Assembly: GCF_003010495.1 (NCBI RefSeq)
Contig: NZ_CP027570.1
Coordinates: 990,001-1,022,000, forward strand
From: Megasphaera elsdenii DSM 20460
GTDB taxonomy: Bacteria; Bacillota; Negativicutes; Veillonellales; Megasphaeraceae
Direction: 5' to 3'
Length of the DNA stretch: 32,000 bases
Under the pieces are notes generated by a model. The model did no database searches and was not told the DNA's origin. It was given only the letters and a program-made list of their open reading frames with translations. Position numbers and translations under genes: made by a program. This document shows, one piece after another, positions 320 to 28,884 of the stretch (the stretch's first letter is position 1; every line of letters begins with the position of its first letter).

Positions 320-408
320 AAAAGGCAGTTGAACGATTGACCGGCAGATTATTCCGTCAATCCATAGGGGAGTCAACGATACTTTACAATCATAAGGGGA
401 GAGGTTCT

Positions 409-1887
409 ATGACGAAACACATCTTTAGAACCAAAAGTATCAGTGAGTTTATTTCGGAAACGAAACAAGACGGCGGTATGAACCGCGTCCTCGGTACTTT
501 TGGCCTGACTATGCTCGGTATCGGCGCTATCGTCGGTACAGGCATCTTTGTCCTGACTGGCGTTGCCGCTGCCAACTATTCCGGTCCTGCACTCATCATT
601 TCATTTATCATTGCAGCGTTGGCCTGCGGCTGTGCCGCCCTTTGTTATGCTGAATTTGCCGCCATGGTCCCAGTTGCCGGCAGTGCCTATACCTATGGGT
701 ATGTCGCTCTCGGTGAATTTTGGGCCTGGGTCATCGGCTGGGACCTGATACTAGAGTACGCCTTTGCTGTATCAGCCGTCGCCATTGGCTGGTCCGGGTA
801 TTTCAATAATATCCTGACCAATTTGGGCATCGTCCTGCCGAAAGCTTTGACACTGGCTCCGTATGACGGTGGTATCGTCAACTTGCCGGCTGTCCTCATC
901 CTCTGTGTCATCGCCTTCATCAACATTCACGGCGTCCGCCAGAGTGCAACTGTCAACAACATCATCGTTGCCATCAAATTAGCTGTCGTCGCCTTGTTCC
1001 TGGCTTTAGGCTTCAGCCATGTCGATGCAGCCAACTGGGTTCCCTTCATGCCTTATGGCTGGTCGGGTGTCTTTGCCGGCGCATCCATCATCTTCTTCGC
1101 TTACATCGGTTTCGATGCTGTTTCTACGGCGGCTGAAGAAGTCAAGAATCCGCAGAAAGATTTGCCCCGCGGCATCATCTTGTCGCTCATCATCTGCACG
1201 GTCCTGTACATCGCCGTATCGGCTGTCCTCACCGGGATGGTTCCGTACCTCGAATTTAAGACGACAGCGGCTCCGGTTGCTTTCGCTCTCCAGGCCGTCG
1301 GCTATCATTGGGGCGCTGCAGCCATTTCCGTCGGCGCTATTTGCGGCCTCACTTCGGTCCTCCTGGTCATGAGTTTTGGCCAGAGCCGTGTCCTCTTCGT
1401 TATGTCCCGTGATGGATTGCTTCCGAAATTCTTCGGTCATGTCCATCCGAAATATAAGACTCCGGCCCGCAGCTCCCTGCTGGTCTGCGTCGTTACCGCC
1501 ATTACGGCCGGCTTCCTGCCCATCAACATCGTCGCTGAAATGACCAATATCGGCACGCTCTGTGCCTTCATCATCGTTTCGGCTGCGGTCATCGTCCTTC
1601 GCAAGAAGAACCCGAATCAGGAACGCGCTTTCAAATGTCCGCTCGTTCCCTTGGTTCCGCTCCTGGCTATCGCCTTCTGCGGTGTTCTCATTTACATGCT
1701 GCCCCTGGTTACACAGATCCGCTTCGTCGTATGGCTCTTGTTAGGCCTGGCCATTTACTTCGGCTATGGCTATAACCACAGCATCATCTCCCAGGCTCGC
1801 CGCGGTCAGCTCGGCGCAGCTCCCGTCCCGGGCGCTGTTGCACCGGCTGAACAAGCTGCTCAGGAAGGCCATCCGGCGAATCATTAA
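409..1887 (+). CDS. Amino-acid permease, APC superfamily (cationic amino-acid transporter / YhdG-like), 492 aa
   Basis: ORF-track frame 337..1887. I prefer the ATG at 409 (MTKHIFRTK...) because GGGGAGAGG lies just upstream. The protein is multi-helix and hydrophobic, with APC-type segments GAIVGTGIFVLTG and FFAYIGFDAVSTAAEEVKNPQKDLP. Confidence 0.9.
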   Translation: MTKHIFRTKSISEFISETKQDGGMNRVLGTFGLTMLGIGAIVGTGIFVLTGVAAANYSGPALIISFIIAALACGCAALCYAEFAAMVPVAGSAYTYGYVALGEFWAWVIGWDLILEYAFAVSAVAIGWSGYFNNILTNLGIVLPKALTLAPYDGGIVNLPAVLILCVIAFINIHGVRQSATVNNIIVAIKLAVVALFLALGFSHVDAANWVPFMPYGWSGVFAGASIIFFAYIGFDAVSTAAEEVKNPQKDLPRGIILSLIICTVLYIAVSAVLTGMVPYLEFKTTAAPVAFALQAVGYHWGAAAISVGAICGLTSVLLVMSFGQSRVLFVMSRDGLLPKFFGHVHPKYKTPARSSLLVCVVTAITAGFLPINIVAEMTNIGTLCAFIIVSAAVIVLRKKNPNQERAFKCPLVPLVPLLAIAFCGVLIYMLPLVTQIRFVVWLLLGLAIYFGYGYNHSIISQARRGQLGAAPVPGAVAPAEQAAQEGHPANH

Positions 1888-1914: not shown

Positions 1915-1946
1915 GAAAAAGGCTGTCACTCTGTGACAGCCTTTTT
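1915..1946 (+). terminator. Intrinsic terminator after the permease gene (bidirectional architecture)
   Basis: AAAAA, then GGCTGTCAC (1921-1929), 3-nt loop, GTGACAGCC (1933-1941), then TTTTT. Confidence 0.8.
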
Positions 1947-1976: not shown

Positions 1977-2075
1977 GTAGGGGACGTCCTGAAAGGCGTC
2001 CCGCTGTGATATTCGGCCATAGCCTTATTCTGGTATAATGGTAGGCTTTTGCGAGCCACGAACCACGAGCCACTG
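1977..2075 (+). repeat. Conserved intergenic element, copy 1 (REP-like hairpin + TATAAT box + heptad array)
   Basis: GTAG-GGGACGTCC-tgaaa-GGCGTCCC (1977-2002). Then CTGTGATATTCGGCCATAGCCTTATTCTGGTATAATGGTAGGCTTTTGCGA (TATAAT at 2034-2039). Then GAGCCAC GAACCAC GAGCCAC (2053-2073). Aligns closely by eye with 8541-8635 and 13983-14092. Confidence 0.8.
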
Positions 2076-2090
2076 CTTTTCCTCGGACTC

Positions 2091-2369
2091 AGATGCCGCT
2101 ACGCGGCGACAGACTCAAACTAACAACGACGCTTCGGGAAACCCTCAGCGCGCAGCGGGACGCCCTTTGGGCGTCCCCTACGGATGCGGCGTTCCGCGGC
2201 GACAGACTCAAACTGACAACGACGCTTCGGGAAACCCTCAGCGCGTAGCGGGACGCCCTTTGGGCGTCCCCTACGGATGCGGCGTTCCGCGGCGACAGAC
2301 TCAAACTGACAACGACGCTTCGGGAAACCCTCAGCGCGTAGCGGGACGCCCTTTGGGCGTCCCCTACGG
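2091..2369 (+). repeat. 3 x 93-bp near-identical tandem repeat, each unit carrying a long GTAG/CTAC-flanked GC hairpin
   Basis: CGCGGCGACAGACTC recurs at 2102, 2195 and 2288, an exact 93-bp period. Each unit contains (G)TAGC-GGGACGCCC-ttt-GGGCGTCCC-CTAC(GG), a ~14-bp stem. Differences between units are single bases only. Confidence 0.95.
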
Positions 2370-2454
2370 TATCGCATATAGGCGATGGAGCCACGAGTCA
2401 CTGATTCTGTGTTATACTATGGGGTATATAGTTTATCATAAAGGGGGTCTCCAC

Positions 2455-3138
2455 ATGAAGTGTGTTGTGTTGCTCAGTGGCGGCGTCGATTCTACGACGT
2501 GTCTGGCCATGGCTTTGACGAAATATAAAAAAGATGATGTTTTGGCGCTGACGGCTTATTACGGTCAGAAACATGCCAAGGAATTGGAAGCGGCCCGTAA
2601 GGTAGCGGCGCATTACGGGGTGCAACAACAGGAAGTCGATTTATCTCAGGCTTTCTCTTTGAGTGATTGTTCTCTTCTCCAGGGCAGTCATAAGCCAATC
2701 GCCCATGAATCCTATGCCGATCAGCTGGCTAAAAAAGGCGGCGAAGGGACCGTCGATACGTATGTGCCTTTCCGCAATGGCTTATTCTTATCCTTTGCAG
2801 CTGCTGTAGCCGTCAGTGTCGGTGCCGAAGTCATTTATTACGGTGCCCATGCCGATGATGCCGCCGGGCGGGCTTATCCGGATTGCACGCCGGAATTTGA
2901 AACGGCCATGAATACGGCCATTTATGAAGGTTCTGGCCGGACCTGTCATCTGGAAGCGCCGTTATTGTCGTGGAACAAGGCGGGTGTCGTCAAAGAAGGG
3001 CTGCGCCTGGGAGCCCCTTATGAATTGACCTGGAGCTGCTATGAAGGCGGCGATACCCCTTGCGGTGTCTGCGGGACCTGCCGCGACCGGGCGGCTGCTT
3101 TTGCCGCCAATGGCGTCAAGGATCCGGCATTGCCGTGA
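2455..3138 (+). CDS. queC: 7-cyano-7-deazaguanine synthase QueC, 227 aa
   Basis: ATG at 2455 is preceded by AAAGGGGG. N-terminus is MKCVVLLSGGVDSTTCL (PP-loop SGGxDS). C-terminal Zn-Cys cluster is CYEGGDTPCGVCGTCRDR. The ORF-track extension back to 2038 only reads through the repeat array. Confidence 0.93.
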   Translation: MKCVVLLSGGVDSTTCLAMALTKYKKDDVLALTAYYGQKHAKELEAARKVAAHYGVQQQEVDLSQAFSLSDCSLLQGSHKPIAHESYADQLAKKGGEGTVDTYVPFRNGLFLSFAAAVAVSVGAEVIYYGAHADDAAGRAYPDCTPEFETAMNTAIYEGSGRTCHLEAPLLSWNKAGVVKEGLRLGAPYELTWSCYEGGDTPCGVCGTCRDRAAAFAANGVKDPALP

Positions 3139-3166
3139 AAGACTGAAACGGGGAGGCATATTAAAT

Positions 3167-5152
3167 ATGAAATATAAAGTGAAGACGCGGCTGACGACGA
3201 TGGTCCTGCTGGCCCTCATGGCTTTTGGGACGGTCAGCGCCAGTGAAGCCGTGTCTGAAAAGGATAATTTTTATCAGGCCGTCAATGGCCAGACTTTAGC
3301 GACCAAGAAAATCCGGCCGACGGAAGCGTCATGGTCCTGGTTCTCTGAACGGTCTTTGGAAAATAAACAGGCTTTAGGCAAGGAACTGGAAGCTGTCGCG
3401 GCCAAGGAAGGCACCTATGCCAAGGGGACGCCGGAACAGAAAATCGCCGACCTCTATGCCTGTGCTATCGACAATAAGCAGCGCAACACCACGGCCCGTG
3501 CCCATTTACAGGAACTGACGGGGCCCATCGAAAAGGCCCGGACCCTGCCGGAATTGACGGCGGCTTTGCAGGCTGTCAGTGCCAAGACGGGTACGGATAT
3601 CTTCGTCGGCTATACTGTCGACCGCCTGCCGACAGGCCTGCGCTATGTGCCGCGCATCTTGACGGTGACGCCGTCCTTTACGCGGGATGAACTGGAAAAG
3701 GAACCTCAGCCCGGTGCCTGGAAGGCGTATCGGGAGTACGTCGCCCATATCCTTCAGGAAGCCGGTGAAACGCCGGATGAGGCGACGGCACACAGCCAGG
3801 CCATCTTCGATATGGAAAAGGGTTTGGGGCCTCATTTACTGACGAGTGAACAGCGCAACGATGTGACCGTCCAGAACCGCCTGATGTCGCGGGGAAAATT
3901 GGAAAAACTCATGCCCAACATGGGTGGCAGGACGGTCCTGACTAACTTGGGCCTGAATAAAGAAAAACAATTCTTCTTATCTAATCCGGACTATTTGCAG
4001 CAATTCGACGCCCTTTATGTCCCTCAGAACCTCGATTTGCTCAAGAGTTACGCCGTCTATCAGGTTTACAGCGGCTTTGCGCCCAGTGCGGATATTAAAT
4101 TGCGGGACTTGCAGCGCAATTACGCCCTCCAGCGTTTCGGCATCGCTCAGGCCCGGGACGACAAGGAAACGGCGAGCCGCATGATCCAGAGCATGTTGTC
4201 TTATGAGTTTGGCCAGATTTACATGAAGAACCATTGTACGGCGGCCATCATCAACGACGTGAAGAACATGGTCAACGAAATCCGCAATGTCTATAAACTG
4301 CGGCTGGAAGCCAATAATTGGCTCAGCCCGGAAACGCGCGGCAAGGCTGTCGATAAACTTAACAGCCTGCGTGTCTTTGTTGGAGGCCCTGCTGCCGATG
4401 ACAAGCCGATCATCGAAAGTATGCCTGATGTCATTTCCCCGAAAGACGGCGGCGACTTACTGGCCAATGTCATGCATAACGGCGTCCTGGAGAAACAACA
4501 GGTCCACGCCCTGTTGGGAAAGGAGTTCAATCCCGATAAGTGGTATGCCTTTGATCCCCAGGATGTCAATGCCGCCTACATTCCGGAAAACAACAGTATC
4601 ACCATCCCGGCCGGCATCCTGCAGCCGCCGTTTTATGATGCCAAGGCTTCGCGCGGTGCCAATCTGGGCGGCATCGGCGTCGTCATCGGGCATGAAATTT
4701 CCCATGCCTTTGACCCGAACGGCAGCAAATACGATAGTGAAGGCCGTCTGAAGAATTGGTGGAACAAGAAGGACTACGAAGCGTTCCAAAAATTATCCGC
4801 TGCTTTCGGCCCTTATTACGATAGCTATACCCTTGGCAAAGGACTCCATGAAAATGGCAAGCTCGTCAGCAATGAAGCTATTGCCGACTGCGGCGGCCTG
4901 TCCGTCGCGACAGAATTGGCCCATGGCGATGAAGGGACTTTGCGCGACCTGTATCGTACCTTCGCTACGGTCTTTGCCACTAAGATGACGGACCAGCTGC
5001 TGCTCTACCTGGTCCAGAACGATCCACACCCGACGGGAGAAGCCCGCGTCAACGGCGCCCTGTCGGCGACCAATGGCTTCTATACGGCCTACGGCATCCA
5101 GCCCGGTGACGGCATGTATGTCGAACCGCAGAAGCGCGTCCATTTGTGGTAG
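3167..5152 (+). CDS. Secreted M13-family zinc endopeptidase (PepO / neprilysin-like), 661 aa
   Basis: ATG at 3167 with GGGAGG 10 nt upstream. Signal peptide MKYKVKTRLTTMVLLALMAFGTVSASEA. M13 motifs NAAYIPENN, VIGHEISHAFD (HExxH) and NEAIADCGG. Confidence 0.9.
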   Translation: MKYKVKTRLTTMVLLALMAFGTVSASEAVSEKDNFYQAVNGQTLATKKIRPTEASWSWFSERSLENKQALGKELEAVAAKEGTYAKGTPEQKIADLYACAIDNKQRNTTARAHLQELTGPIEKARTLPELTAALQAVSAKTGTDIFVGYTVDRLPTGLRYVPRILTVTPSFTRDELEKEPQPGAWKAYREYVAHILQEAGETPDEATAHSQAIFDMEKGLGPHLLTSEQRNDVTVQNRLMSRGKLEKLMPNMGGRTVLTNLGLNKEKQFFLSNPDYLQQFDALYVPQNLDLLKSYAVYQVYSGFAPSADIKLRDLQRNYALQRFGIAQARDDKETASRMIQSMLSYEFGQIYMKNHCTAAIINDVKNMVNEIRNVYKLRLEANNWLSPETRGKAVDKLNSLRVFVGGPAADDKPIIESMPDVISPKDGGDLLANVMHNGVLEKQQVHALLGKEFNPDKWYAFDPQDVNAAYIPENNSITIPAGILQPPFYDAKASRGANLGGIGVVIGHEISHAFDPNGSKYDSEGRLKNWWNKKDYEAFQKLSAAFGPYYDSYTLGKGLHENGKLVSNEAIADCGGLSVATELAHGDEGTLRDLYRTFATVFATKMTDQLLLYLVQNDPHPTGEARVNGALSATNGFYTAYGIQPGDGMYVEPQKRVHLW

Positions 5153-5159
5153 AATTTTC

Positions 5160-5187
5160 GTGGCTCGTGGCTCGTGGCTCGTGGTTC
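5160..5187 (+). repeat. Heptad tandem array (GTGGCTC)x3 + GTGGTTC
   Basis: Starts 8 nt after the pepO-like stop (TAG at 5150-5152). Four contiguous 7-mers. Followed by hairpin TTCGCAGG (5185-5192) / CCTGCGAA (5211-5218), with no U-tract. Confidence 0.9.
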
Positions 5188-5266
5188 GCAGGGTGTCCTT
5201 GTTATGGCGGCCTGCGAACGGCGACCTGCGGCCTGCGTTCTCATAAAGTATTTACACAACTAATCC

Positions 5267-5295
5267 TTGCATTATCTTTGGGAATACGGTACAAT
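5267..5295 (+). promoter_or_regulatory. Candidate pyk promoter
   Basis: TTGCAT (5267-5272), 17-nt spacer, TACAAT (5290-5295), about 105 nt upstream of the start codon. Confidence 0.4.
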
Positions 5296-5401
5296 CGCAG
5301 TGAGCAATAGCTGTATATTGCACTAGTGGGACAAAAAATGTACCACCTGGAACAGAAATGTCAATCGTAACGTGTACGTGAGTAGAAAAGGAGAAATCTG
5401 T

Positions 5402-7150
5402 ATGCTGAAAAAAACAAAGATCGTCTGCACCTTAGGCCCCAGTTCCAATACCCCGGAAATTATCGAAAAGATGATTAAAGCCGGCATGAACGTTGCCCGC
5501 TTTAATTTCTCCCATGGTTCTCATGAAGAACATAAACAGCGCATCGACATGGTCCGCGCTGCCTCCCAGAAACTGGGTATCCCTGTGGCACTGCTCCTGG
5601 ACACGAAAGGCCCGGAAATCCGTTTGGGCAAATTTAAGAATGGCTCGATCATGATGGAAGCCGGCAAGGACTTTACCTTGACGGCCCGTGACATCGAAGG
5701 CGACGAAACGATTGCCTCCATGAACTATAAAGAACTGCCGCAGGACGTCAAAGCCGGCGACCACATCCTCTTGTCGGACGGCCTGGTCAACTTGGAAGTT
5801 GTCAGCGTCGACGGCGAAGATATCCATACGAAGATTCTCAACAGCGGCAAGATGAGCGACCGCAAGCGCGTTGCCGTACCGGGCATTGCCATCAACCTGC
5901 CGGCCGTTTCTGAAACCGATGCCGCTGACATCGAATTTGGCTGCCGCATGAATATGGACTGGATTGCCGCTTCTTTCATCCAGCGCGGCAAAGATGTCCT
6001 GACGATCCGCAAGATTTTGGAAAAACACGACAGCCACATGAAGATTATCTCCAAAATCGAATGTCAGGCAGCTGTCAACAATATCGACGATATCATTAAG
6101 ATGAGCGACGGCATCATGGTTGCCCGTGGTGACCTCGGCGTCGAAGTCCCGGCGGAAGAAGTACCGATGCTCCAGAAAGTCCTCATCCATAAATGCCAGG
6201 CTGCGGGCAAACCGGTCATTACGGCGACGCAGATGCTGGAATCGATGTGCAACAACCCGCGTCCGACCCGGGCAGAAACGAGCGACGTTGCTAACGCCAT
6301 CCTCGATGGCACCGATGCCATCATGCTCAGCGGCGAAACGGCTGGTGGCCTCTATCCGGTAGAAGCCGTAGAAACTATGGCCCGCGTCGCAACCTTTACG
6401 GAAAGCAACTTCACGCCGAAGTCCTATGAAGATGTCGACGCCGAATCGACAACGACGACGGAATCCATCGGCAAAGCCGTCGTCAAGATTGCCAAAGACC
6501 TCCACGCTGCGGCTATCATCGCTTCGACCGAACGCGGCGGCACAGCGCAGATGATTTCTAAATTCCGCCCGGCCTGCCCGATTGTGGCCGTATCGCCGCA
6601 CGAAGCCATCGTCCGCCGCTTGCAGCTCAACTGGGGCGTCCAGGCCGTCACGGGCAAAGAAGCGAACGACACCGACGCTGTCGTCGATAATGCTATCTTC
6701 GCAGCCCTCGACAACGACCTCATCAAAGCCGGCGACCTCGTCGTCCTCACGGCCGGTGTCCCCGTTGCCAAAGCCGGTTCGACCAACATGATCCGCGTCC
6801 AGGTCGTCGGTGACGTCCTCCTCCGCGGTACCGGTATCGGCCGTAATTCGGCCATCGGCAAAGTCTGTGTCGCTGAATCGAAAGAAGACCTGGAAAAGAA
6901 CTTCAGCGACGGCTGCATCCTCGTCCTCCGTTCGGCCCGCGCTGATTTCGTCGATTATATGAAACGGGCCAGCGCCATCGTCTCCGAAGAAGTCGGCCTG
7001 ACCAGTGAATCAGCCATCGTCGCCATCACCTTGGGCATCCCGACCGTCGTCGGCGCAGCTCATGCCGTAGACACTCTGGAAAATGGCGAAATCGTCACCG
7101 TAGACGCCAGCCGCGGCACCATCTTCCGCGGCGAAGCCAACGCACGATAA
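5402..7150 (+). CDS. pyk: Pyruvate kinase with a C-terminal PEP-utilizer (PEPut) mobile-domain extension, 582 aa
   Basis: ATG at 5402 after AAAGGAG. MLKKTKIVCTLGPSS, MNVARFNFSHG and MVARGDLGVE are classic PK motifs. The last ~100 aa (…SEEVGLTSESAIVAITLGIPTVVG…) match the PEPut domain found on Bacillus/Geobacillus-type PKs. Confidence 0.95.
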   Translation: MLKKTKIVCTLGPSSNTPEIIEKMIKAGMNVARFNFSHGSHEEHKQRIDMVRAASQKLGIPVALLLDTKGPEIRLGKFKNGSIMMEAGKDFTLTARDIEGDETIASMNYKELPQDVKAGDHILLSDGLVNLEVVSVDGEDIHTKILNSGKMSDRKRVAVPGIAINLPAVSETDAADIEFGCRMNMDWIAASFIQRGKDVLTIRKILEKHDSHMKIISKIECQAAVNNIDDIIKMSDGIMVARGDLGVEVPAEEVPMLQKVLIHKCQAAGKPVITATQMLESMCNNPRPTRAETSDVANAILDGTDAIMLSGETAGGLYPVEAVETMARVATFTESNFTPKSYEDVDAESTTTTESIGKAVVKIAKDLHAAAIIASTERGGTAQMISKFRPACPIVAVSPHEAIVRRLQLNWGVQAVTGKEANDTDAVVDNAIFAALDNDLIKAGDLVVLTAGVPVAKAGSTNMIRVQVVGDVLLRGTGIGRNSAIGKVCVAESKEDLEKNFSDGCILVLRSARADFVDYMKRASAIVSEEVGLTSESAIVAITLGIPTVVGAAHAVDTLENGEIVTVDASRGTIFRGEANAR

Positions 7151-7167
7151 GCATCACCCTGATAGGA

Positions 7168-7199
7168 GGGGCTGTCGCATTAAGCGACAAGCCCCTTTT
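7168..7199 (+). terminator. Intrinsic terminator after pyk
   Basis: GGGGCTGTCGC (7168-7178), loop ATTAA, GCGACAAGCCCC (7184-7195, one bulged A), then TTTT. Confidence 0.8.
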
Positions 7200-7329
7200 G
7201 TGGTTCGTTTGGCGTGGTTCGTTTGCCGAAAATTCTCACAGCTGCAAGAAAAATGATATTTTCATACAGCAGATTGTTAAAAAATTTAAACCTTCACGGC
7301 AAACAAATCACGAACCACGGCAAACCACG
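7200..7329. repeat. 130-bp MITE-like unit: imperfect ~29-bp inverted heptad arms around a 68-bp AT-rich core
   Basis: Left arm is GTGGTTCGTTTGGC GTGGTTCGTTTGCC G (7200-7228; a 14-bp direct repeat). The right arm 7297-7329 reverse-complements to CGTGGTTTGCCGTGGTTCGTGATTTGTTTGCCG. It lies between the convergent pyk and M20 genes. Confidence 0.6.
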
Positions 7330-7331
7330 TG

Positions 7332-7384
7332 AAAAAAGGGATTGTGCATGACGGCAAAAGCCTTCGTGCGACAATCCCTTTTTT
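7332..7384 (-). terminator. Intrinsic (bidirectional-looking) terminator for the M20 peptidase gene
   Basis: AAAAAAGGGATTGT ... ACAATCCCTTTTTT flanks a long loop. It sits immediately 3' of the minus-strand stop (7384-7386). Confidence 0.65.
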
Positions 7385-8487
7385 CACATCCCCATAAATT
7401 CCAGCATTTGTATCATGCCGGCTGGGAACGTGTTTATGTCCAAGGATTCCTGCAAAGTGTGTTCACCGCGGCTGCGGCAGAAGCCGAAGGAAATGGACGG
7501 GATGCCCTGGCTCATGGGGATGTTGGCATCGGTGCTGCCGGCAATGCAGGTTGTCGGCAGGCTGTGGCGCTGACGGATTGCCGTGATGCGGTCTGCCAGG
7601 GGATTGGCGTCCAGTCGGCTGCAGGGACGTTCGCCCAGGAGCGTTGTCCCGATGTGGACGCTTTCCCGTTCTCCTGCTTTTATGATGGCGTGGAAGGCCT
7701 GGTCCAGTTTATCCAGTTCGTCGGCATTTTCCGAACGCAAGTCGACAGTGAACTTCGCTTTGGCAGCGATAGAATTGATGGTCGTACCGCCGGCGATGGT
7801 GCCGACATTGTACGTCGTCTTCGGCTGGGACGGTACAGACAGCCCATAGAGACGGCTGATGAGGCGGGCCGCTTCGGCAATGGCATTGGACTGGCCGAAA
7901 TGCATCCAGCTGTGGCCGCCGGCAGCTTCGACCGTCACGGCATAGCGCCGGGATCCGACGGCAGTCGTCACGAAGGTATCGAAAGTACAGTCGACGGCGA
8001 CGACTTCGGAAATCCGGTCGTGCCAATCGGCCATGACCTGCCGCATCCCCTTGAGATTGCCCAGGCCTTCTTCGCCGACATCGAAGGCGAAAAGCAGGCC
8101 CTGCGGCGGCATGAGCTGTAAATCGAAAAACATTTTGATGATGAATAATAAACCGGCAATACTGGCACTGTTGTCGCTGCACGACGGTGCCGACAAGATG
8201 TGTCCCGTCTGATGAATGGGGATTTCCTGTAAATCTTTAAATACAGTATCTATATGAGCGGTGTAAAGGGCGACCTTTTCACCGCTTTTTATATGGCAGG
8301 GATAGAGAATATTGCCGGCTTCATCGCGATAGGCACTGCTAGCTCCCAAGCCATGTAAATATTGGAGAATCCATTCCCCCTTGGCCTGTTCGTGACCCGT
8401 CGGCGAAGGCAGCGAAATAATCTGACAAAGTAATTCCATAAAATCACAGCGGTGCTCCCGCACATAACGTTCTATATCTTCATTCAT
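7384..8487 (-). CDS. M20-family metallopeptidase (ArgE/DapE/PepT-like), 367 aa
   Basis: Motifs AHIDTVF, SDNSASIAG, DVGEEGLGNLKG and AAGGHSW fit the M20 metal-ligand pattern. GAGGAG RBS upstream of the ATG (minus strand). Confidence 0.85.
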   Translation of the reverse strand: MNEDIERYVREHRCDFMELLCQIISLPSPTGHEQAKGEWILQYLHGLGASSAYRDEAGNILYPCHIKSGEKVALYTAHIDTVFKDLQEIPIHQTGHILSAPSCSDNSASIAGLLFIIKMFFDLQLMPPQGLLFAFDVGEEGLGNLKGMRQVMADWHDRISEVVAVDCTFDTFVTTAVGSRRYAVTVEAAGGHSWMHFGQSNAIAEAARLISRLYGLSVPSQPKTTYNVGTIAGGTTINSIAAKAKFTVDLRSENADELDKLDQAFHAIIKAGERESVHIGTTLLGERPCSRLDANPLADRITAIRQRHSLPTTCIAGSTDANIPMSQGIPSISFGFCRSRGEHTLQESLDINTFPAGMIQMLEFMGM

Positions 8488-8519
8488 GGTGATGACTCCT
8501 CTCTCTTCATGGTAACTTT

Positions 8520-8528
8520 ATTATAACA
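8520..8528 (-). promoter_or_regulatory. Candidate extended -10 promoter for the M20 gene
   Basis: The minus strand reads TG-T-TATAAT (8528 down to 8520), about 30 nt upstream of the start codon. No convincing -35. Confidence 0.35.
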
Positions 8529-8540
8529 TGGAAAAGACGC

Positions 8541-8635
8541 AGGCCGCCTGGATAAGGCGGCCCGATGTGATGTTCGACCACAGCCTATCCGAGTATAATG
8601 GCAGGCTTTTACGAACCACGAACAACGAGCCACTA
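8541..8635 (+). repeat. Conserved intergenic element, copy 2
   Basis: AGGCCGCC-tggataa-GGCGGCC hairpin (8541-8562). Then CGATGTGATGTTCGACCACAGCCTATCCGAGTATAATGGCAGGCTTTTACGA (TATAAT at 8594-8599). Then GAACCAC GAACAAC GAGCCAC (8613-8633). Collinear with 1977-2075. Confidence 0.8.
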
Positions 8636-8664
8636 TTTTTTCACGAGCCGAGGGTTACTCGAGG

Positions 8665-8759
8665 CGATGTCTTCAGTTTGAGTTTGACGCCGCGCAGCGG
8701 CATCTGAGTCTGAGGCGACCGGCGGGACCGTCAGGTCCCCGATTCGATGAACGATGAAC
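8665..8759 (-). repeat. Single inverted copy of the 93-bp repeat unit, plus a hairpin and a (GATGAAC)x2 heptad pair
   Basis: Reverse complement of 8665-8745 is GGGGACC-tgac-GGTCCC...CCTCAGACTCAGATGCCGCTGCGCGGCGTCAAACTCAAACTGAAGAC. This matches 2081-2128 (CCTCGGACTCAGATGCCGCTACGCGGCGACAGACTCAAACTAACAAC) at roughly 85% by eye. GATGAAC GATGAAC lies at 8746-8759. Confidence 0.7.
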
Positions 8760-9141
8760 GGCTTTTTTACCCATGTACTTGAGTGTCATTATCTTTTAAT
8801 TACAAAAATGACCACTTGCGACAAAAAAACGTCATTTTAGGACAAGTTTGTCTTATCCCCTCGTTTTATATCGTATAATGCAAGTAGATAAGAAACCCAT
8901 ATAACGAATGTATGAAATGTAAAAATGTAAACCTAAAATAGAAAGGGATGAAGTTATTAAAACTGATATTTTTATCAAACATTATTAAAGAACATGTGGA
9001 AGTATAACATTTAGCGAAACAATTTTATATCATATTAATTATATTATAAGTGAGAAAGACAATTGTCTATACAAATAAAAAATAATTAAAGCATTTTTAC
9101 GGTAAAATATTCTGGAGCTGAAAAAAAGGAGGCGAACATTT

Positions 9142-12100
9142 ATGAATAAGATTTACAAGGTAGTATGGAATACAGTTCGCAATTGTTACGTAGTCGGATC
9201 CGAACTGATTAGCTCGAAATCGGGCAGACATAGCGCATCGAATGGCAAGTCTTCGAGTTTGAAAGTTACTTTGACCGTACTAGCGCTCTGCGGGATGACG
9301 GCTTTAGGAAGCGGAGTGGTCCCGGCGTATGCGGCGGATGGCACGGGAGCTGTAACGGCAAAGAATCAATACGTCGCATTGAGGTTCTCTAGTCCTGATG
9401 ATGGCGATTCAAGAGCTGAATACCAGAATGGTCAATGGCATACTACTTTTAATGGAAAAAACTACGATACGGTTGACAGTGGTATGAAGGATAAATATAA
9501 TCAGCCTATTATCTATTGGGTCCGCAACGGCTATTCGCTGACCATAGTCGACGGCCAGCCTTATACGTCCTTGTCGGACAATGGCCGCCGGGCTGATGTC
9601 AGCTGGACAGATGATGCAAATGCCAAACCGTCGGATATCTTAGAAAGCGTTACTTCGACTCATGTCCAAACGAATGTGACGACCAATGTTGGCGAAACGT
9701 TGCAGCAAGTCAATGCTGGAACCTATGCTGGTGTGAGCAATTCTGATGGAACAGAGGTTAACGGCAAATGGAATTACATCGTCAAAGACTCCAGTTGGAA
9801 AGGCGTTGTCGACGCTTCGAATTATCGCAACGGGTATGCTGACTTAGTTTCTAGTGGCAAGCCTAGGGGCTTTGTCAGAACTACGGATGCTGGCTCTAAA
9901 TTAGCTTGGAACGCTACCCTTAGCGCATATACGTATAATGGAAAAGTTGTCGATTATAGCAATATCTATGTCATTGATGGGGAAATCGGTGTCTTCACCA
10001 ACGCTTCGGAATCAGAAGTCTATACAGGAACAGTCTTTGGTAAAAATAATGAAGTCTTGATGACTGTCAAGAAATCTGATGGCAGCTATTACAGCTATTG
10101 GGGCGCTGAAGTCAATGACGCTGGCGCTACGATGGATACCTATCGGGTAGCCGAATACCAGAAAGACCTCAACGTCTTGCGGGACAATGACTTTGCCCTC
10201 TATCATAACGATATTAAGTCCGTAGATATGAGCACGAACGATTCTTCGGCAACCATTTCCCTCATGCGTAATGGTGATGGTACGAGCAATCCTGCTGTCG
10301 ATGGAACGTTGACCATTACTAATGGTGGCGGCACAGGTGGTAAGGACACCTATGTCCGTATTTCCAACACGACGAATGGACAAGAAGTTTCTAAGACCTT
10401 TACGACAGGCTCGAAAGTCAGCGCCATTGGGTCAACTGATGCTACAACAGGACTGACGATTAATGGTGTCGATTACACGATTAAACCGGATGTCAGCTGG
10501 ACTGCCCAGGCTGGCGGTAAGGACGTCAATGCTGTCAATCAGAAAGTCAACTTTGTTGGAAGTGACCATATTACCGTTACCGGAACAGATGGTCAGATTA
10601 AATTTGAAGCTACTGGGTTGGCAGATACGGACCTCACCAATATCACGAACACGGCAGTAACAAAGATTCAAAACATCGCTAAAGGCGAAGATGTCCATAT
10701 CAAAGCCGATACCTATACGGTAGGTAATGATGGTTCCGTTACCATGACCTACGTCGATGGCAATGGCAATACAATTGATGGCACGGCCAAGATTACGGGC
10801 ATCGCCAAGTCGGATCTGTCGAATATCACCAATAAAGGAAATACCGTTATCAAGAATATTGCTAAAAATGCTGTGAAAGTTATTGGTGGGACGAACACGG
10901 CCGTTGAAACTTCGACGACAGATAATGGACCTGTGGAATACAAAGTCAATCTCAATAAAGATGTCAACTTGGGCGATACGATTCAGCTCAATGGCTCCGA
11001 TGGCTCCATCAGTGCTAAATCGGGCGGCGCGAGGTTGTCTTTCAACAACAACGGCTTGACGGTTTCCCAGGCCAAGAATGGCGTGACTAATGAAACGAGA
11101 ATCAATGGAGCTGAGATTACGGTCGACGGTGGTATCGGTAACCAGACAACTATCAAAGGTTCGATGGCTAGTATCGGCAGCGTCCTAGTCAACGGCGGTG
11201 GTGGAACAGCTACGATTAGTGGCCTGACCAATAAAACGACGAAGTACGCGGGTTTTGCAACATCTGGCCGGGCAGCAACGGAAGAACAGTTGAAAGAAGT
11301 CAACAGCAAAGCGACTGCAGCAAAGACGACGGTTACTAACGGCAAGAACATTACTGTCAACGAAGCGAAAGCAGATGATGGCAGCAGCACGTATACCGTA
11401 GGCTTGGCAAAAGATGTCGTTCTTGGCGACAATGCCATTAAGCTCAATGGCTCCGATGGCTCCATCAGTGCTAAATCGGGCGGCGCGAGGTTGTCTTTCA
11501 ACAACAACGGCTTGACGGTTTCCCAGGCTAAGAATGGCTTGACTAATGAAACGAGAATCAATGGAGCTGAGATTACGGTCGACGGCGGTATCGGTAACCA
11601 GACAACGATTAAAGGCTCGACGGCCCGAATTGGTAATGTCTTGGTTAACGGTGGTAGCGGAACGGCTACGATTACTGGCTTGACCAATAAAACGACGGAT
11701 TACACCGGCTTTGCAAACGGCAGTGGCCGGGCCGCAACGGAAGAACAGCTGAAAGAAGTCGACAGCAAAGCGGCAGCCGCAAAGACGACGGTCACTAACG
11801 GCAAGAATATCACTGTCGACGAAGCGAAAGCAGATGATGGCAGCAGCACGTATACCGTAGGCTTGGCAACAGATGTCGTTCTCGGCGACAATGCCATTAA
11901 GCTCAACGGTTCCGATGGTTCCATCAGTGCTAAATCGGGCGGAGCCCAGCTGGCTTTCAACAACAGCGGCTTGACGGTTTCGCAGGCTAAGAATGGCTTG
12001 ACCAATGAAACGAGAATCGATGGAGCTACGATTACAGTCGATGGTGGTACGGGTAACCAGACGATCATCAACGGTTCGACGGCTCGTATCGGCAGTGTCT

Positions 12101-13788
12101 TGGTCAACGGTGGTAGCGGAACGGCTACGATTACTGGCTTGACCAATAAAACGACGGAGTACACCGGTTTTGCAAACGGCAGTGGCCGGGCAGCTACGGA
12201 AGAACAGCTGAAGGAAGTTGCAGGCAAAGCTGGCGAAGCTATCGAAACGGCTGGCAAAGGCTGGAATCTGACGACTAACGGTAAAGAAGCTAGCAAGACC
12301 AACATCGCTCCGGACGGCACGGTAGACTTCTCCAGCAGCAATGACAATCTGATCATCAGCAATGCTGGCGCAAATCTCTCGTTCTCCCTCAGTGATAATC
12401 TCGACCTAACCAAGAATGAAGCTAATAAAGGCAGCGTCAAAGTCGGTAAAAATACGACATTGACAGATGGACTTCTCCAGGTCGGTAACTTGTCCCTGAC
12501 GGCAAATGCTCTCACAATTGACGGTTCGACCTATATCAGTGCCAGTGGTATCAATGCCAATAAACATAAAATCACCAATGTCTTAGCTGGGAAAGATGAT
12601 ATGGATGCAGTCAACGTCGGTCAGCTCAAATCGGCTATCCGCGATTCGCAAGTTTCCATCAAGGCTGGTGATGGCATCAGTGTCGCTAAGACGGGTAACC
12701 AGTACACAATCAATGTTAATATTGAAGGCGTTACCAATAACCAAGGCAAAGTAACGGTTTCGACAGGTGACAGCACTTCGACAGAAAGTGGTTCCGAATC
12801 CGGTTCGTCGGGCGCTAAGAAGTTCAAAGTCATGGACCTCATGTATCGGGCAGAATCTAATGAAGTTGCTCCAGAAACGACAACAGATACCGGTAAACCT
12901 ATGAAAATTGAAAGTATTCCGGAAGATATCAAGCTTGAAGCTGATGATAACCAGGCTGCCAGTGTCGTAAATGGTGAAACTATTAAGATTGCTGGTGATG
13001 GTACGAATATCTCGACGAAAGCTAACGTTACTGGAGCAGGCAGCATGGATACCATATCCGTTTCCCTGAAACCGGATATTCAAGTTGATAGTGTTACTAT
13101 CAACAATGGTGGACCGACCATTAATAATACTGGTATCGACATGAATGGTAAGAGCATCACCAATGTTGAAAATATTACCGTCAACAATGGTCCGACCATC
13201 AATAGCAGCGGTATCGACATGAACAGCCAGAAGATCATCAACCTGGCTGAAGGAGATATCTCCGAAACGTCGACAGATGCCGTCAATGGCGGTCAGCTCT
13301 ACAACACGAACCAGGCCGTCATTGCCAATGCGGAAAACATCAACAGCCTGAGCCATTCGCTCAACAAGCTGGACAGCCGCATCAACCGCGTCGGTGCTGG
13401 TGCAGCCGCGCTGGCAGCCCTCCACCCGCTCGACTTTGACCCGGACAACAAGTGGGACTTCGCAGCTGGTTACGGCAACTATGCTGGCGCTAATGCCGTC
13501 GCTATCGGTACCTACTATCGTCCGAACGAAAACACCATGTTCAGCATCGGTGGCAGCTTCGGCGGCGGTGAAAATATGATCAACGCCGGTGTCAGCTTCA
13601 AACTCGGCAGCGGTGGCAGCGGTATCACGACGTCCAAGACGGTCATGGCCAAGAAGATTAAAGAACAAGATGAACTCCTGAAAGCACAGGATGCTAAGAT
13701 GAAAGAACAAGACGAAAAGATTGCTAAACTGGAAGCTCTCGTAGCCCAGCAAGGCGAAATGATTCAGCAGGCACTTGGCAAGAAATAG
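9142..13788 (+). CDS. Trimeric autotransporter adhesin (type Vc, YadA-like), 1548 aa, with ESPR signal peptide and post-anchor coiled coil
   Basis: AAGGAGG RBS. N-terminus MNKIYKVVWNTVRNCYVVGSELISSK is an ESPR-type extended signal, followed by ...ALGSGVVPAYA|ADG. DAVNVGQLK and DAVNGGQLYN are Hep_Hag/neck-type motifs. The C-terminal four-strand anchor runs AGAAALAALHPLDF...GVSFKLG, followed by a ~60-aa K/E/Q-rich heptad tail. Confidence 0.93.
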   Translation: MNKIYKVVWNTVRNCYVVGSELISSKSGRHSASNGKSSSLKVTLTVLALCGMTALGSGVVPAYAADGTGAVTAKNQYVALRFSSPDDGDSRAEYQNGQWHTTFNGKNYDTVDSGMKDKYNQPIIYWVRNGYSLTIVDGQPYTSLSDNGRRADVSWTDDANAKPSDILESVTSTHVQTNVTTNVGETLQQVNAGTYAGVSNSDGTEVNGKWNYIVKDSSWKGVVDASNYRNGYADLVSSGKPRGFVRTTDAGSKLAWNATLSAYTYNGKVVDYSNIYVIDGEIGVFTNASESEVYTGTVFGKNNEVLMTVKKSDGSYYSYWGAEVNDAGATMDTYRVAEYQKDLNVLRDNDFALYHNDIKSVDMSTNDSSATISLMRNGDGTSNPAVDGTLTITNGGGTGGKDTYVRISNTTNGQEVSKTFTTGSKVSAIGSTDATTGLTINGVDYTIKPDVSWTAQAGGKDVNAVNQKVNFVGSDHITVTGTDGQIKFEATGLADTDLTNITNTAVTKIQNIAKGEDVHIKADTYTVGNDGSVTMTYVDGNGNTIDGTAKITGIAKSDLSNITNKGNTVIKNIAKNAVKVIGGTNTAVETSTTDNGPVEYKVNLNKDVNLGDTIQLNGSDGSISAKSGGARLSFNNNGLTVSQAKNGVTNETRINGAEITVDGGIGNQTTIKGSMASIGSVLVNGGGGTATISGLTNKTTKYAGFATSGRAATEEQLKEVNSKATAAKTTVTNGKNITVNEAKADDGSSTYTVGLAKDVVLGDNAIKLNGSDGSISAKSGGARLSFNNNGLTVSQAKNGLTNETRINGAEITVDGGIGNQTTIKGSTARIGNVLVNGGSGTATITGLTNKTTDYTGFANGSGRAATEEQLKEVDSKAAAAKTTVTNGKNITVDEAKADDGSSTYTVGLATDVVLGDNAIKLNGSDGSISAKSGGAQLAFNNSGLTVSQAKNGLTNETRIDGATITVDGGTGNQTIINGSTARIGSVLVNGGSGTATITGLTNKTTEYTGFANGSGRAATEEQLKEVAGKAGEAIETAGKGWNLTTNGKEASKTNIAPDGTVDFSSSNDNLIISNAGANLSFSLSDNLDLTKNEANKGSVKVGKNTTLTDGLLQVGNLSLTANALTIDGSTYISASGINANKHKITNVLAGKDDMDAVNVGQLKSAIRDSQVSIKAGDGISVAKTGNQYTINVNIEGVTNNQGKVTVSTGDSTSTESGSESGSSGAKKFKVMDLMYRAESNEVAPETTTDTGKPMKIESIPEDIKLEADDNQAASVVNGETIKIAGDGTNISTKANVTGAGSMDTISVSLKPDIQVDSVTINNGGPTINNTGIDMNGKSITNVENITVNNGPTINSSGIDMNSQKIINLAEGDISETSTDAVNGGQLYNTNQAVIANAENINSLSHSLNKLDSRINRVGAGAAALAALHPLDFDPDNKWDFAAGYGNYAGANAVAIGTYYRPNENTMFSIGGSFGGGENMINAGVSFKLGSGGSGITTSKTVMAKKIKEQDELLKAQDAKMKEQDEKIAKLEALVAQQGEMIQQALGKK
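10945..12225 (+). repeat. Three tandem ~456-459-bp (152-153 aa) near-identical repeats inside the TAA stalk
   Basis: CTCAA(T/C)GG(C/T)TCCGATGG recurs at 10987, 11443 and 11902. The repeated peptide is LNGSDGSISAKSGGARLSFNNNGLTVSQAKNG.TNETRI.GA.ITVDGG.GNQT...LVNGG.GTATI.GLTNKT...GRAATEEQLKEV. Confidence 0.95.
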
Positions 13789-13840
13789 TGCCATCCAGAA
13801 GGCTTCGCGTGAAGGTTCCGGCCATCATGCGGGGCCTTTT

Positions 13841-13875
13841 GATGTTTGATGTTTGATGCGTGATGTTTGATGTGA
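13841..13875 (+). repeat. Heptad tandem array GATGTTT GATGTTT GATGCGT GATGTTT GATGTGA
   Basis: Five contiguous 7-mers about 50 nt after the TAA stop codon. Confidence 0.9.
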
Positions 13876-13938: not shown

Positions 13939-14092
13939 GTAGGGGCCGACCTTTAACCTCTCAGACCGCCTTTGGCGGCCAGCTCCCCTATAAAGGGAGC
14001 CTTGTGAGTCCCGTTGTGAGATTTCATTACAGCCCATTCGAGTATAATGGCAGGCTTTTACGAGCCACGAATCACGAACCACGAGCCACTAA
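13939..14092 (+). repeat. Conserved intergenic element, copy 3 (with extra GTAG-headed GC hairpins upstream)
   Basis: GTAGGGGCCGACC at 13939. CCGCC-ttt-GGCGG and CTCCC-ctataaa-GGGAG hairpins. Then GTCCCGTTGTGAGATTTCATTACAGCCCATTCGAGTATAATGGCAGGCTTTTACGA (TATAAT at 14043-14048). Then GAGCCAC GAATCAC GAACCAC GAGCCAC (14062-14089). Confidence 0.8.
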
Positions 14093-19482: not shown

Positions 19483-19605
19483 GGAAAGGGCTGACGCCCT
19501 TTCCAGTGGTTCGTGGTTCGTAAGCGGGCCGATAACCCTGTGGCGCCCCTACTTTTAAATTTAAAACCATCCACTAACCCCTAGCCACTAACAACTAACC
19601 ACTAA
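19483..19605 (+). repeat. Intergenic mosaic: 9-bp-stem hairpin, (GTGGTTC)x2, a CCCCTAC head, and five CCACTAA-type heptads
   Basis: GGAAAGGGC-tgac-GCCCTTTCC (19483-19504, no U-tract). GTGGTTC GTGGTTC (19507-19520). GGCGCCCCTAC (to 19552). CCACTAA CCCCTAG CCACTAA CAACTAA CCACTAA (19571-19605). Confidence 0.85.
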
Positions 19606-26602: not shown

Positions 26603-26756
26603 TTTGTAGTATAATGTTTGCAGTACGAAGTAGTATTTGCTTGATTTATCGCTTCGTTGCTAAAATAATCAGCACTATATCGAATGGGCTATGGTAAAAT
26701 CTCACAGTGGGCCGCCCTCTGGGACGGCCCCTACGCAGCTAACTGCTAACTGCTAA
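26603..26756 (-). repeat. Inverted, partly degenerate copy of the conserved intergenic element, flanked by heptad arrays
   Basis: Reverse complement of 26682-26737 is GCGTAGGGGCCGTCC-cagag-GGCGGCCC-ACTGTGAGATTTTACCATAGCCCATTCG, which matches copies 1 and 3. The TATAAT-box and heptad part (26603-26681) is decayed to GT-phased 7-mers (GTTTGTA GTATAAT GTTTGCA GTACGAA GTAGTAT). CAGCTAA CTGCTAA CTGCTAA lies at 26736-26756. Confidence 0.65.
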
Positions 26757-28635: not shown

Positions 28636-28884
28636 TAAATAAAAAAGACCTGCCGTCATACAGAGACGGTGGTCCGTGGTTCCACTCTGATTGCAGTCCT
28701 TAGACTGCCACTCAATACCCGTAACGGCGGCAACCGGGATGACCTACTCGCGTTCAATCATCCTGCTCCCAAAGGCATTCCATCACATTCAACTTCGATA
28801 GGGGCTTTCAGCCGATGGCCCTTACTCTCTGTGCCGTTATCCTGTGTGTACTTGTTTTGGTCATTGCATTTTTGTTTTCGTGTT
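28636..28884 (-). promoter_or_regulatory. T-box riboswitch leader (cysteine-specific) controlling cysE(-cysK)
   Basis: Minus strand, 5' to 3': AGAGAG/GTAA stem-I elements (~28825-28835). Tandem GAAUGU/GAAUGC specifier candidates (codons at 28785-28787 and 28775-28777). T-box sequence AATCAGAGTGGAACCACGG (28693-28675; consensus AAnnnGGGTGGnACCGCG). Terminator GACCACCGTC...GACGGCAGGTC plus T6 (28674-28641), which overlaps the T-box as expected for the antiterminator/terminator switch. Confidence 0.75.

Follow-up and report, generated by a model that had tools for sequence, protein, structure and literature searches.

Introduction

What is a regular array of hairpin-forming units doing between an amino-acid permease gene and queC in Megasphaera elsdenii DSM 20460, and to which class of repeats does it belong? 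An earlier note, made from the letters of the sequence, had described three tandem units of 93 bp at this locus and likened them to the bacterial interspersed mosaic elements (BIMEs) of enterobacteria. REP sequences and their REP-associated tyrosine transposases (RAYTs) have been studied almost solely in Proteobacteria. Heptanucleotide intergenic repeats, which also occur in this spacer, are familiar as the cyanobacterial STRR and the Xanthomonas GGGAATC repeats. In Escherichia coli, the transposase TnpA-REP binds single-stranded REP hairpins and cuts and rejoins them beside a GTAG foot (PMC3479197). A RAYT gene is present as a single copy, and its loss can leave the REPs behind (PMC6006769, PMC5581495). 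The survey of GTAG-tagged REPs by Di Nocera et al. (2013) covered more than 80 species of eight phyla, mainly Proteobacteria, and its main text never mentions Firmicutes or Megasphaera (PMC3733652); RAYT-family genes have been reported in Clostridia (PMC5581495). Our literature search found no paper linking Megasphaera with REP or RAYT.

In this study, we analysed a window of 32,000 nucleotides (contig NZ_CP027570.1, positions 990,001 to 1,022,000 of the forward strand), to which positions below refer unless genome coordinates are indicated, together with the complete genome and the corresponding locus in other strains and species. The array is probably a REP/BIME-type mosaic of selfish extragenic repeats, and more precisely a transposase-less allele of the M. 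elsdenii REPtron.

Architecture of the permease-queC spacer

The features of the locus are collected in Table 1. Tandem Repeats Finder reports a repeat at 2102-2369 with a period of 93, 2.9 copies, 98% matches, no indels and a score of 522, and a repeat search of the window places the 93-bp copies at 2097-2189, 2190-2282 and 2283-2375, so that the array described earlier is present over 2097-2375. Over 87 nt there is no difference between units 2 and 3, and four positions set unit 1 apart. When a single unit is folded as single-stranded DNA, it reaches -24.5 kcal/mol (z = -3.1), and none of 200 shuffled sequences folds equally well. This fold recovers both hairpins that had been proposed for each unit, namely a larger 9+5-bp stem, CGTAG(C)GGGACGCCC-TTT-GGGCGTCCCCTACG, and a smaller one, CGCT..GGG-AAA-CCC..AGCG. 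The hairpins of the H part of the units (see below) carry GTAG/CTAC on both sides, with the exception of unit 1, where one side reads GCAG. A 491-nt region folds with z = -5.8, and in a long RNA fold the H hairpin at 1977-2004 pairs with that at 2155-2182. Orientation alternates only between this first H and the H copies of the array; within the array the units are direct.

Table 1. Features of the permease-queC spacer and of the related repeat block 6 kb downstream.
Feature	Position	Strand	Basis or remark
Permease ORF	337..1887	+	Pfam AA_permease recorded for orthologous gene
Intrinsic terminator behind the amino-acid permease ORF, GGCTGTCAC-TCT-GTGACAGCC + TTTTT	1921..1946	+	Read from sequence
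REP-like hairpin H, forward, GTAGGGGACGTCC-TGAAA-GGCGTCCCGC; inverted relative to array H copies	1977..2004	+	nhmmer module map
P module, ~73 nt, TGGTATAAT at 2031-2039, CCACGAN heptads at 2052-2073	2001..2073	+	Repeat family
Unit 1: lead-in, hairpin GCCGC-TAC-GCGGC, A (2100-2157), H (2155-2182); marker base GCGCAGCGGG	2083..2189	+	
Unit 2: A 2193-2250, H 2248-2275	2190..2282	+	
Unit 3, 87 nt: A 2286-2343, H 2341-2368	2283..2369	+	
Tail hairpin ATCGC-ATATAG-GCGAT, closes A-H blocks in all strains	2371..2386	+	TATCGCATATAGGCGATGG after last unit in every assembly
Second heptad stretch GAGCCACGAGTCACTG, 14/16 direct repeat of 2060-2075 (GAACCACGAGCCACTG)	2388..2403	+	
Candidate queC promoter, extended -10, TGTTATACT	2410..2418	+	Sequence; conserved at sister-species locus
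queC, 227 aa	2455..3138	+	TIGR00364, 178.8 bits; first profile position falls on residue 142 of long ORF
Second P module with heptads	8561..8633	+	Repeat family
Inverted, diverged lead-in + A copy	8644..8715	-	72 nt, 81% complementary to 2081-2152

Heptad stretches bracket the array, as had been noticed before, and the two -10-like boxes lie where they had been placed (TATAAT at 2034-2039, TATACT at 2413-2418). The three A-H units and the tail hairpin are enclosed by a 16-nt direct repeat, GA[A/G]CCACGAG[C/T]CACTG, which could be the remnant of two P heptad tracts or could resemble a target duplication. The copy in opposite orientation some 6 kb away also exists, although it had been placed slightly off its actual limits (Table 1); it is followed by a hairpin, GGGACCGTCAGGTCCC, at 8725-8740. 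Within the window, the P-module family has copies at 2001, 8561 and 14010.

Two further features of the window were recorded. A T-box leader lies on the minus strand at 28659-28873 (110.5 bits, above the gathering score of 93), and a YadA-type adhesin gene of 1548 aa at 9142-13788 contains a 456/459-bp triplication at 10981-12230 with 89% matches.

A genome-wide family of A, H and P modules

The genome searched comprises one contig of 2,478,942 bp with 52.8% GC and no N. Genome-wide, the 93-bp unit splits into two independent modules, A and H. Module A is about 68 nt long and forms the hairpins GCCGC-TAC-GCGGC and CGCT..GGG-AAA-CCC..AGCG, and module H is a palindrome of 28-34 nt with GTAG/CTAC feet, a 9-bp + 5-bp stem with one bulged C, and a TTT loop. 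A third module, P, of about 73 nt with a TATAAT-like box and CCACGAN heptads, lies just upstream of the array. Counted by iterated nhmmer on the whole genome, there are 71 copies of A, 98 of H and 57 of P, distributed over 122 loci in many orders, and other tandem composites of 301-304 bp are found at 478, 742 and 800 kb.

The abundance of the underlying words is far above expectation: CGTAGGGG occurs 277 times in the genome and 26 times in a genome simulated with a third-order Markov model, and GTAGGGG 445 and 95 times, respectively. Although 80% of the genome lies in open reading frames of 200 aa or more, these contain only three of the 71 A copies, three of the 57 P copies and 22 of the 98 H copies. 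Stems are preserved by compensatory changes, as in one base pair of H that is A-T in 25 copies and C-G in 25. By cumulative GC skew, replication starts at about 860 kb and ends at about 2.28 Mb, and most P (53/57) and A copies (55/71) are co-oriented with the leading strand.

Module H has the hallmarks of a REP, being a short, GC-rich, imperfect palindrome with a GTAG foot that is extragenic and present in high copy number. Among the traits of BIMEs, mosaic structure and tandem amplification are both present, and alternating orientation is seen only between the first H and the array H copies. Neither clean insertion ends nor a target site could be defined at a near-identical solo A-H-tail copy (genome 1186763-1186873), which is embedded in another mosaic, and no dispersed copy was found whose insertion is polymorphic, with a matching empty site.

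Heptad arrays form a population of their own in this genome: 432 tandem 7-nt arrays were counted, compared with 50 in the third-order Markov simulation. A few classes of unit dominate (CATCAAA, CACGAGC, CACGAAC, CACTAAC and the like). The arrays often adjoin terminators or REP hairpins, and in the window they occupy 5158-5237, 8611-8633, 8745-8760, 13838-13873, 14060-14089, 19506-19605 and 26738-26756.

A predicted RAYT gene at the same locus in other strains

An exact lookup of QueC in public assemblies led to conspecific contigs with three, two and one units at this locus. The three-unit contig is a complete genome (CP198969.1); the assemblies with one and two units were built from short reads or metagenomes, in which tandem repeats can be collapsed. 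One conspecific contig carries a Y1_Tnp gene of 149 aa, P0001, between the repeats and queC. The identical protein is indexed in 479 blocks of the assembly collection and, in a sample of 23 contigs read, lies downstream of the same permease gene in 10 of the 10 places listed, followed by queC or, in one strain, by an adhesin gene. In these strains the spacer runs permease, [H P A-H], [H P (A-H)1-2], RAYT, [H P (A-H)1-3], tail and heptads, queC, and inverted H hairpins flank the RAYT gene within about 130 nt upstream and about 50 nt downstream. A RAYT gene between inverted REPs, as in a REPtron, was found at the locus in conspecific assemblies (L018, L034-L043), and such a gene is also present in two genomes of other Megasphaera species, G022 and G001.

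The best NCBIfam match of P0001 is the REP-associated tyrosine transposase family NF047646, at 73.8 bits (E = 1.3e-20) against a curated cut-off of 80 bits; the IS200 family scores 27.7 bits (E = 2.6e-6). A sequence search of the PDB matches P0001 to E. coli TnpA-REP (4ER8) and to no other entry; the NHVH motif (H76, H78) and Y135 of P0001 align with the HMH motif and the DYIYINP tyrosine of 4ER8, and the HUH motif and the tyrosine are invariant among three Megasphaera homologues. The predicted fold (pLDDT 75, pTM 0.74) has Y1 transposases as all of its best 30 PDB matches; 4ER8 superposes best, with a TM score of 0.64 and an r.m.s.d. of 3.0 Å, compared with 6-10 Å for the IS608 and ISDra2 transposases. 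Unlike an insertion sequence, P0001 is a single copy at a fixed chromosomal site. Homology and model point to P0001 as a RAYT-type HUH/Y1 transposase of predicted activity.

The genome of DSM 20460 has no RAYT; it yields nothing better than E = 2.8e-4 with P0001. A Pfam Y1_Tnp search of the same genome returns only an IS200-type pseudogene at 766 kb and fragments at 88 kb, and both were rejected as RAYT candidates. The pseudogene, an IS200-type TnpA gene at genome 766044-766403 (L001 1555-1935, minus strand), has an in-frame TAA, lies in low-GC DNA and is unrelated to the REP family. The weak P0001 match at 1805862 was also set aside, the encoded protein of 183 aa being HUH-only and its gene lacking flanking H hairpins. 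This ORF (genome 1805862-1806257; L021 1483-2034, minus strand) contains MPNHIHL, an HUH-like motif, reaches only 16.5 bits with Y1_Tnp, is without GTAG hairpin flanks and has homologues in at least eight other Megasphaera species (L025-L033); its product may be an HUH protein that has been domesticated or inactivated.

A complete REPtron is accordingly absent from DSM 20460, whose window holds a RAYT-less remnant. As read from these alignments, the queC spacer is the site of the predicted RAYT of the species, and the array in DSM 20460 is a RAYT-less allele of it. The BIME-like assignment of the earlier note is upheld by the GTAG-tagged palindrome, the roughly 60-100 copies of each module and the RAYT-type gene in the conspecific spacer, and the search of the genome and of related strains showed the unit to be neither confined to two loci nor invariant.

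Proposed origin of the RAYT-less allele

Positions 1-2183 of the window are 99.9% identical to a RAYT-bearing strain through its block 1, and the tail after unit 3 is the tail of block 3 in that strain. The array is therefore the left block joined to the right block, for which a deletion between direct A-H units is the simplest account. A single recombination between such units would have removed block 2 and the RAYT gene and left H P (A-H)3. The direction of this event (a deletion or a recombinational allelic replacement) rests on parsimony. The marker base of unit 1 (GCGCAGCGGG) is common to the RAYT-less alleles with three, two and one units, the one-unit contig reading N at this position, which suggests later changes of unit number within the RAYT-less allele. 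Unit number (1-3) would then vary by unequal recombination or slippage between 93-bp units, and the occurrence of one, two or three units among assemblies fits the recent amplification that had been suggested from the near-identity of the units.

By analogy with known systems, H would be the recognition hairpin and the mosaics at this locus would be the REPtron flanks. An enzyme of the RAYT type would bind the single-stranded REP hairpins and cut and rejoin them by the GTAG foot, and the repeats would have spread in this way. Without the RAYT, the array would change only through recombination or slippage, and, as the genome has no RAYT, the ~70-100 dispersed copies can probably no longer move and would serve as substrates for recombination.

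A separate observation concerns GCA_024436295.1, which has the RAYT gene and lacks about 6.2 kb (L036 3450-4175 compared with window 2184-8555). The missing segment comprises queC, the genes at 5372..7150 and 7384..8487, and one for an M13 peptidase. Each junction falls within a repeat module, with 99.9% identity in the flanking DNA; the gap is either a repeat-mediated deletion or an assembly mis-join.

Distribution in Megasphaera and the class

Genomes of 35 other Megasphaera species were compared. Six carry the repeat family, each with 20-41 listed matches; 15 match only the start of queC, and 14 are without a match. Among these genomes, the family is restricted to the M. elsdenii lineage of the genus. 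In a sister species (G026), whose flanks are 87% identical, the orthologous spacer has one A unit in a different mosaic. In another (G021), the permease-queC synteny is kept around a 270-nt spacer without A, H or P modules. The G021 spacer (L012) contains a perfect-armed hairpin of about 100 nt, AAGGGGAATAGAGGT ... ACCTCTATTTCCCCTT, after an ATATACT box and just before the queC ribosome-binding site, which may be a leader structure. In G007, also a sister species (L007, end of contig C22), the orthologous contig stops inside the first A-H unit, which suggests that repeats of this kind cause draft assemblies to break or collapse.

Homologues of the predicted RAYT at 49% identity were found in two other Megasphaera species, G022 and G001; the former gene is flanked by A-like and H modules and the latter by arrays of a different GTAGGGG hairpin family. 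At E <= 1e-5, the RAYT was not found in five of the six other repeat-bearing species genomes, some of which are drafts, nor in the genome of DSM 20460, and the repeat family therefore often occurs without the enzyme. In the class as a whole, RAYT-family genes are present in 49 of the 151 genomes sampled.

Alternative explanations

A bolder version of the REP/BIME reading, which we regard as unlikely, is that what is mobilized is the entire H-P-A-H composite instead of a REP or REPIN alone. The composite would be a RAYT-dependent element with an outward promoter-like box, a heptad microsatellite and a conserved two-hairpin module of 68 nt. The A module is about 80% conserved beside RAYTs that are only 49% identical, and it could be a guide or recognition element for the RAYT, or an expressed RNA. 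If the composite were the mobile unit, the RAYT-positive and RAYT-negative M. elsdenii strains, with their near-identical flanks, would form a test system for the upkeep of repeats by a RAYT.

It is also conceivable, if unlikely, that the family has no dedicated enzyme, or a different one such as a DUF559 nuclease, and that it has spread by recombination, slippage and gene conversion with the RAYT as a chance neighbour. Both this genome and most sister-species genomes have the family without a detectable RAYT, and the only DUF559 gene (genome 1414413) has an A copy 218 nt upstream. Chance neighbourhood is countered by three different RAYT genes of the genus, each of which has GTAG-footed hairpins on either side; two of these genes are flanked by A-like modules as well, despite 49% protein identity. 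Given the approximately 20 family matches in the 1.8-Mb genome G022, two within 600 nt of one gene would be very unlikely by chance. The tandem repeats that touch the DUF559 gene belong to another family, with a 130-bp unit (...CTCTCCTATGAGGAGAGCC...), and DUF559 was rejected as the partner of A, H and P on this ground. This second hairpin family (...CAGCTCCCCTATAAAGGGAGCC..., ...GCAACCTCTCAGTCAGC...) also occurs at 13960-14003 of the window and at genome 1414755-1415124 and 1186620-1186670, its 130-bp tandem units directly beside the DUF559 gene spanning 1414413-1414730.

We consider it very unlikely that P-A-H is a small-RNA gene or cis leader, in which transcription from TGGTATAAT in P would run through the C-rich heptads and A-H, giving an RNA that acts on queC or in trans. 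In its favour are the perfect extended -10 in the P copy at 2001-2073, the preservation of the hairpins by compensatory changes, the stable fold of the 491-nt region (z = -5.8) and the orientation of 53 of the 57 P copies with replication, which is usual for transcription units. However, of the 57 P copies only about 20 keep TATAAT and 12 read GAATGAT, and no T-run follows H. A consensus scan found no -35/-10 promoter or terminator in 1850-2500, although it also overlooked the terminator of the permease gene, which can be seen by eye. At the same locus, strains and species vary in the number of units and the order of modules; the modules adjoin genes that are unrelated to one another, and some A copies are inverted with respect to P. 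A search of 1880-2480 against Rfam gave no match above threshold and nothing relevant at the gathering score and E <= 1, including no preQ1 riboswitch; a match to mir-63 was discarded as spurious (26.8 bits compared with a gathering score of 55).

queC and its probable promoter

An ORF of 366 aa (2038..3138) is open through the array and ends with queC. The QueC profile TIGR00364 begins at residue 142 of this long ORF, so that queC starts with the ATG at 2455, which has a GGGGG ribosome-binding site in front of it. The N-terminal stretch of the long ORF is an artefact, in agreement with the earlier suggestion that the array falsely lengthens queC, and the locus is a caution for annotation, since the array artificially extends the ORF. 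That the array is translated as a genuine N-terminal QueC extension, as the open frame 2038..3138 might suggest, is effectively refuted by the profile start and ribosome-binding site, by two reverse frames that are open through the array as well (2089..2394 and 2120..2401), by the variable unit number and the whole RAYT gene that many strains have between P and queC, and by the short, unrelated spacers of other species.

The candidate extended -10 box in Table 1 lies downstream of the array, and ATTCTGTGTTATACT near queC is also present in the sister species G026. queC is probably transcribed from its own promoter downstream of the array, and any effect of the array on queC would be a side effect.

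Comparison with known REP, BIME and RAYT systems

The closest parallel is the REP/BIME system of E. coli with its transposase TnpA-REP (4ER8; PMC3479197, PMC6006769). Both systems consist of GC-rich imperfect palindromes with a GTAG foot, high in copy number, extragenic and mosaic with other motifs, and the tandem amplification of composites is as in BIME-2. Both have a REPtron in which a single-copy HUH/Y1 gene occupies a fixed locus between inverted REP flanks, and in both the RAYT is naturally lost from some strains. The host here belongs to the Negativicutes, Firmicutes that possess an outer membrane, and the unit is 93 bp long and joins a REP to a 68-nt two-hairpin module. Whereas the REPs of classical BIMEs alternate in orientation, the Megasphaera units are direct tandem repeats; H has GTAG on both strands, unlike the E. 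coli REP; a promoter-like module with heptad microsatellites is added to the mosaic; and P0001 and TnpA-REP are only 22% identical.

With the REPIN-RAYT systems of Pseudomonas and Enterobacteria (PMC3116915, PMC5581495) the locus shares non-autonomous repeats tied to a vertically inherited, single-copy RAYT. A REPIN is an inverted REP pair that folds into a long hairpin, to which H 1977 and H 2155 would correspond here; the spacer between them is about 150 nt with P and A, whereas that of a REPIN is short. The H doublet (1977/2155) is at most a putative replicating unit. The GTAG-tagged REP super-family (PMC3733652) has in common with the Megasphaera repeats the GTAG palindromes, the GTAG-flanked RAYT genes and closely spaced units in opposite orientation.

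Like STRR and the Xanthomonas heptads, the Megasphaera heptads are 7-nt tandem arrays between genes, but they are built into the P module. The kind of system, REP/BIME-RAYT, is known; no description of it in this group came to light in our literature search, and the present analysis adds the RAYT site at the queC spacer and the RAYT-less allele.

Biological implications

The repeat blocks of this locus bear on the question of whether such repeats cause deletions, one strain being without the 6.2 kb, including queC, that lie between two of them. In a Negativicute of the gut and rumen, one and the same site, between flanks that are 99.9% identical, is occupied by a full REPtron in some strains and by a clean RAYT-less allele in others. 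This would offer a natural comparison for the question of whether a population of repeats needs its transposase in order to persist.
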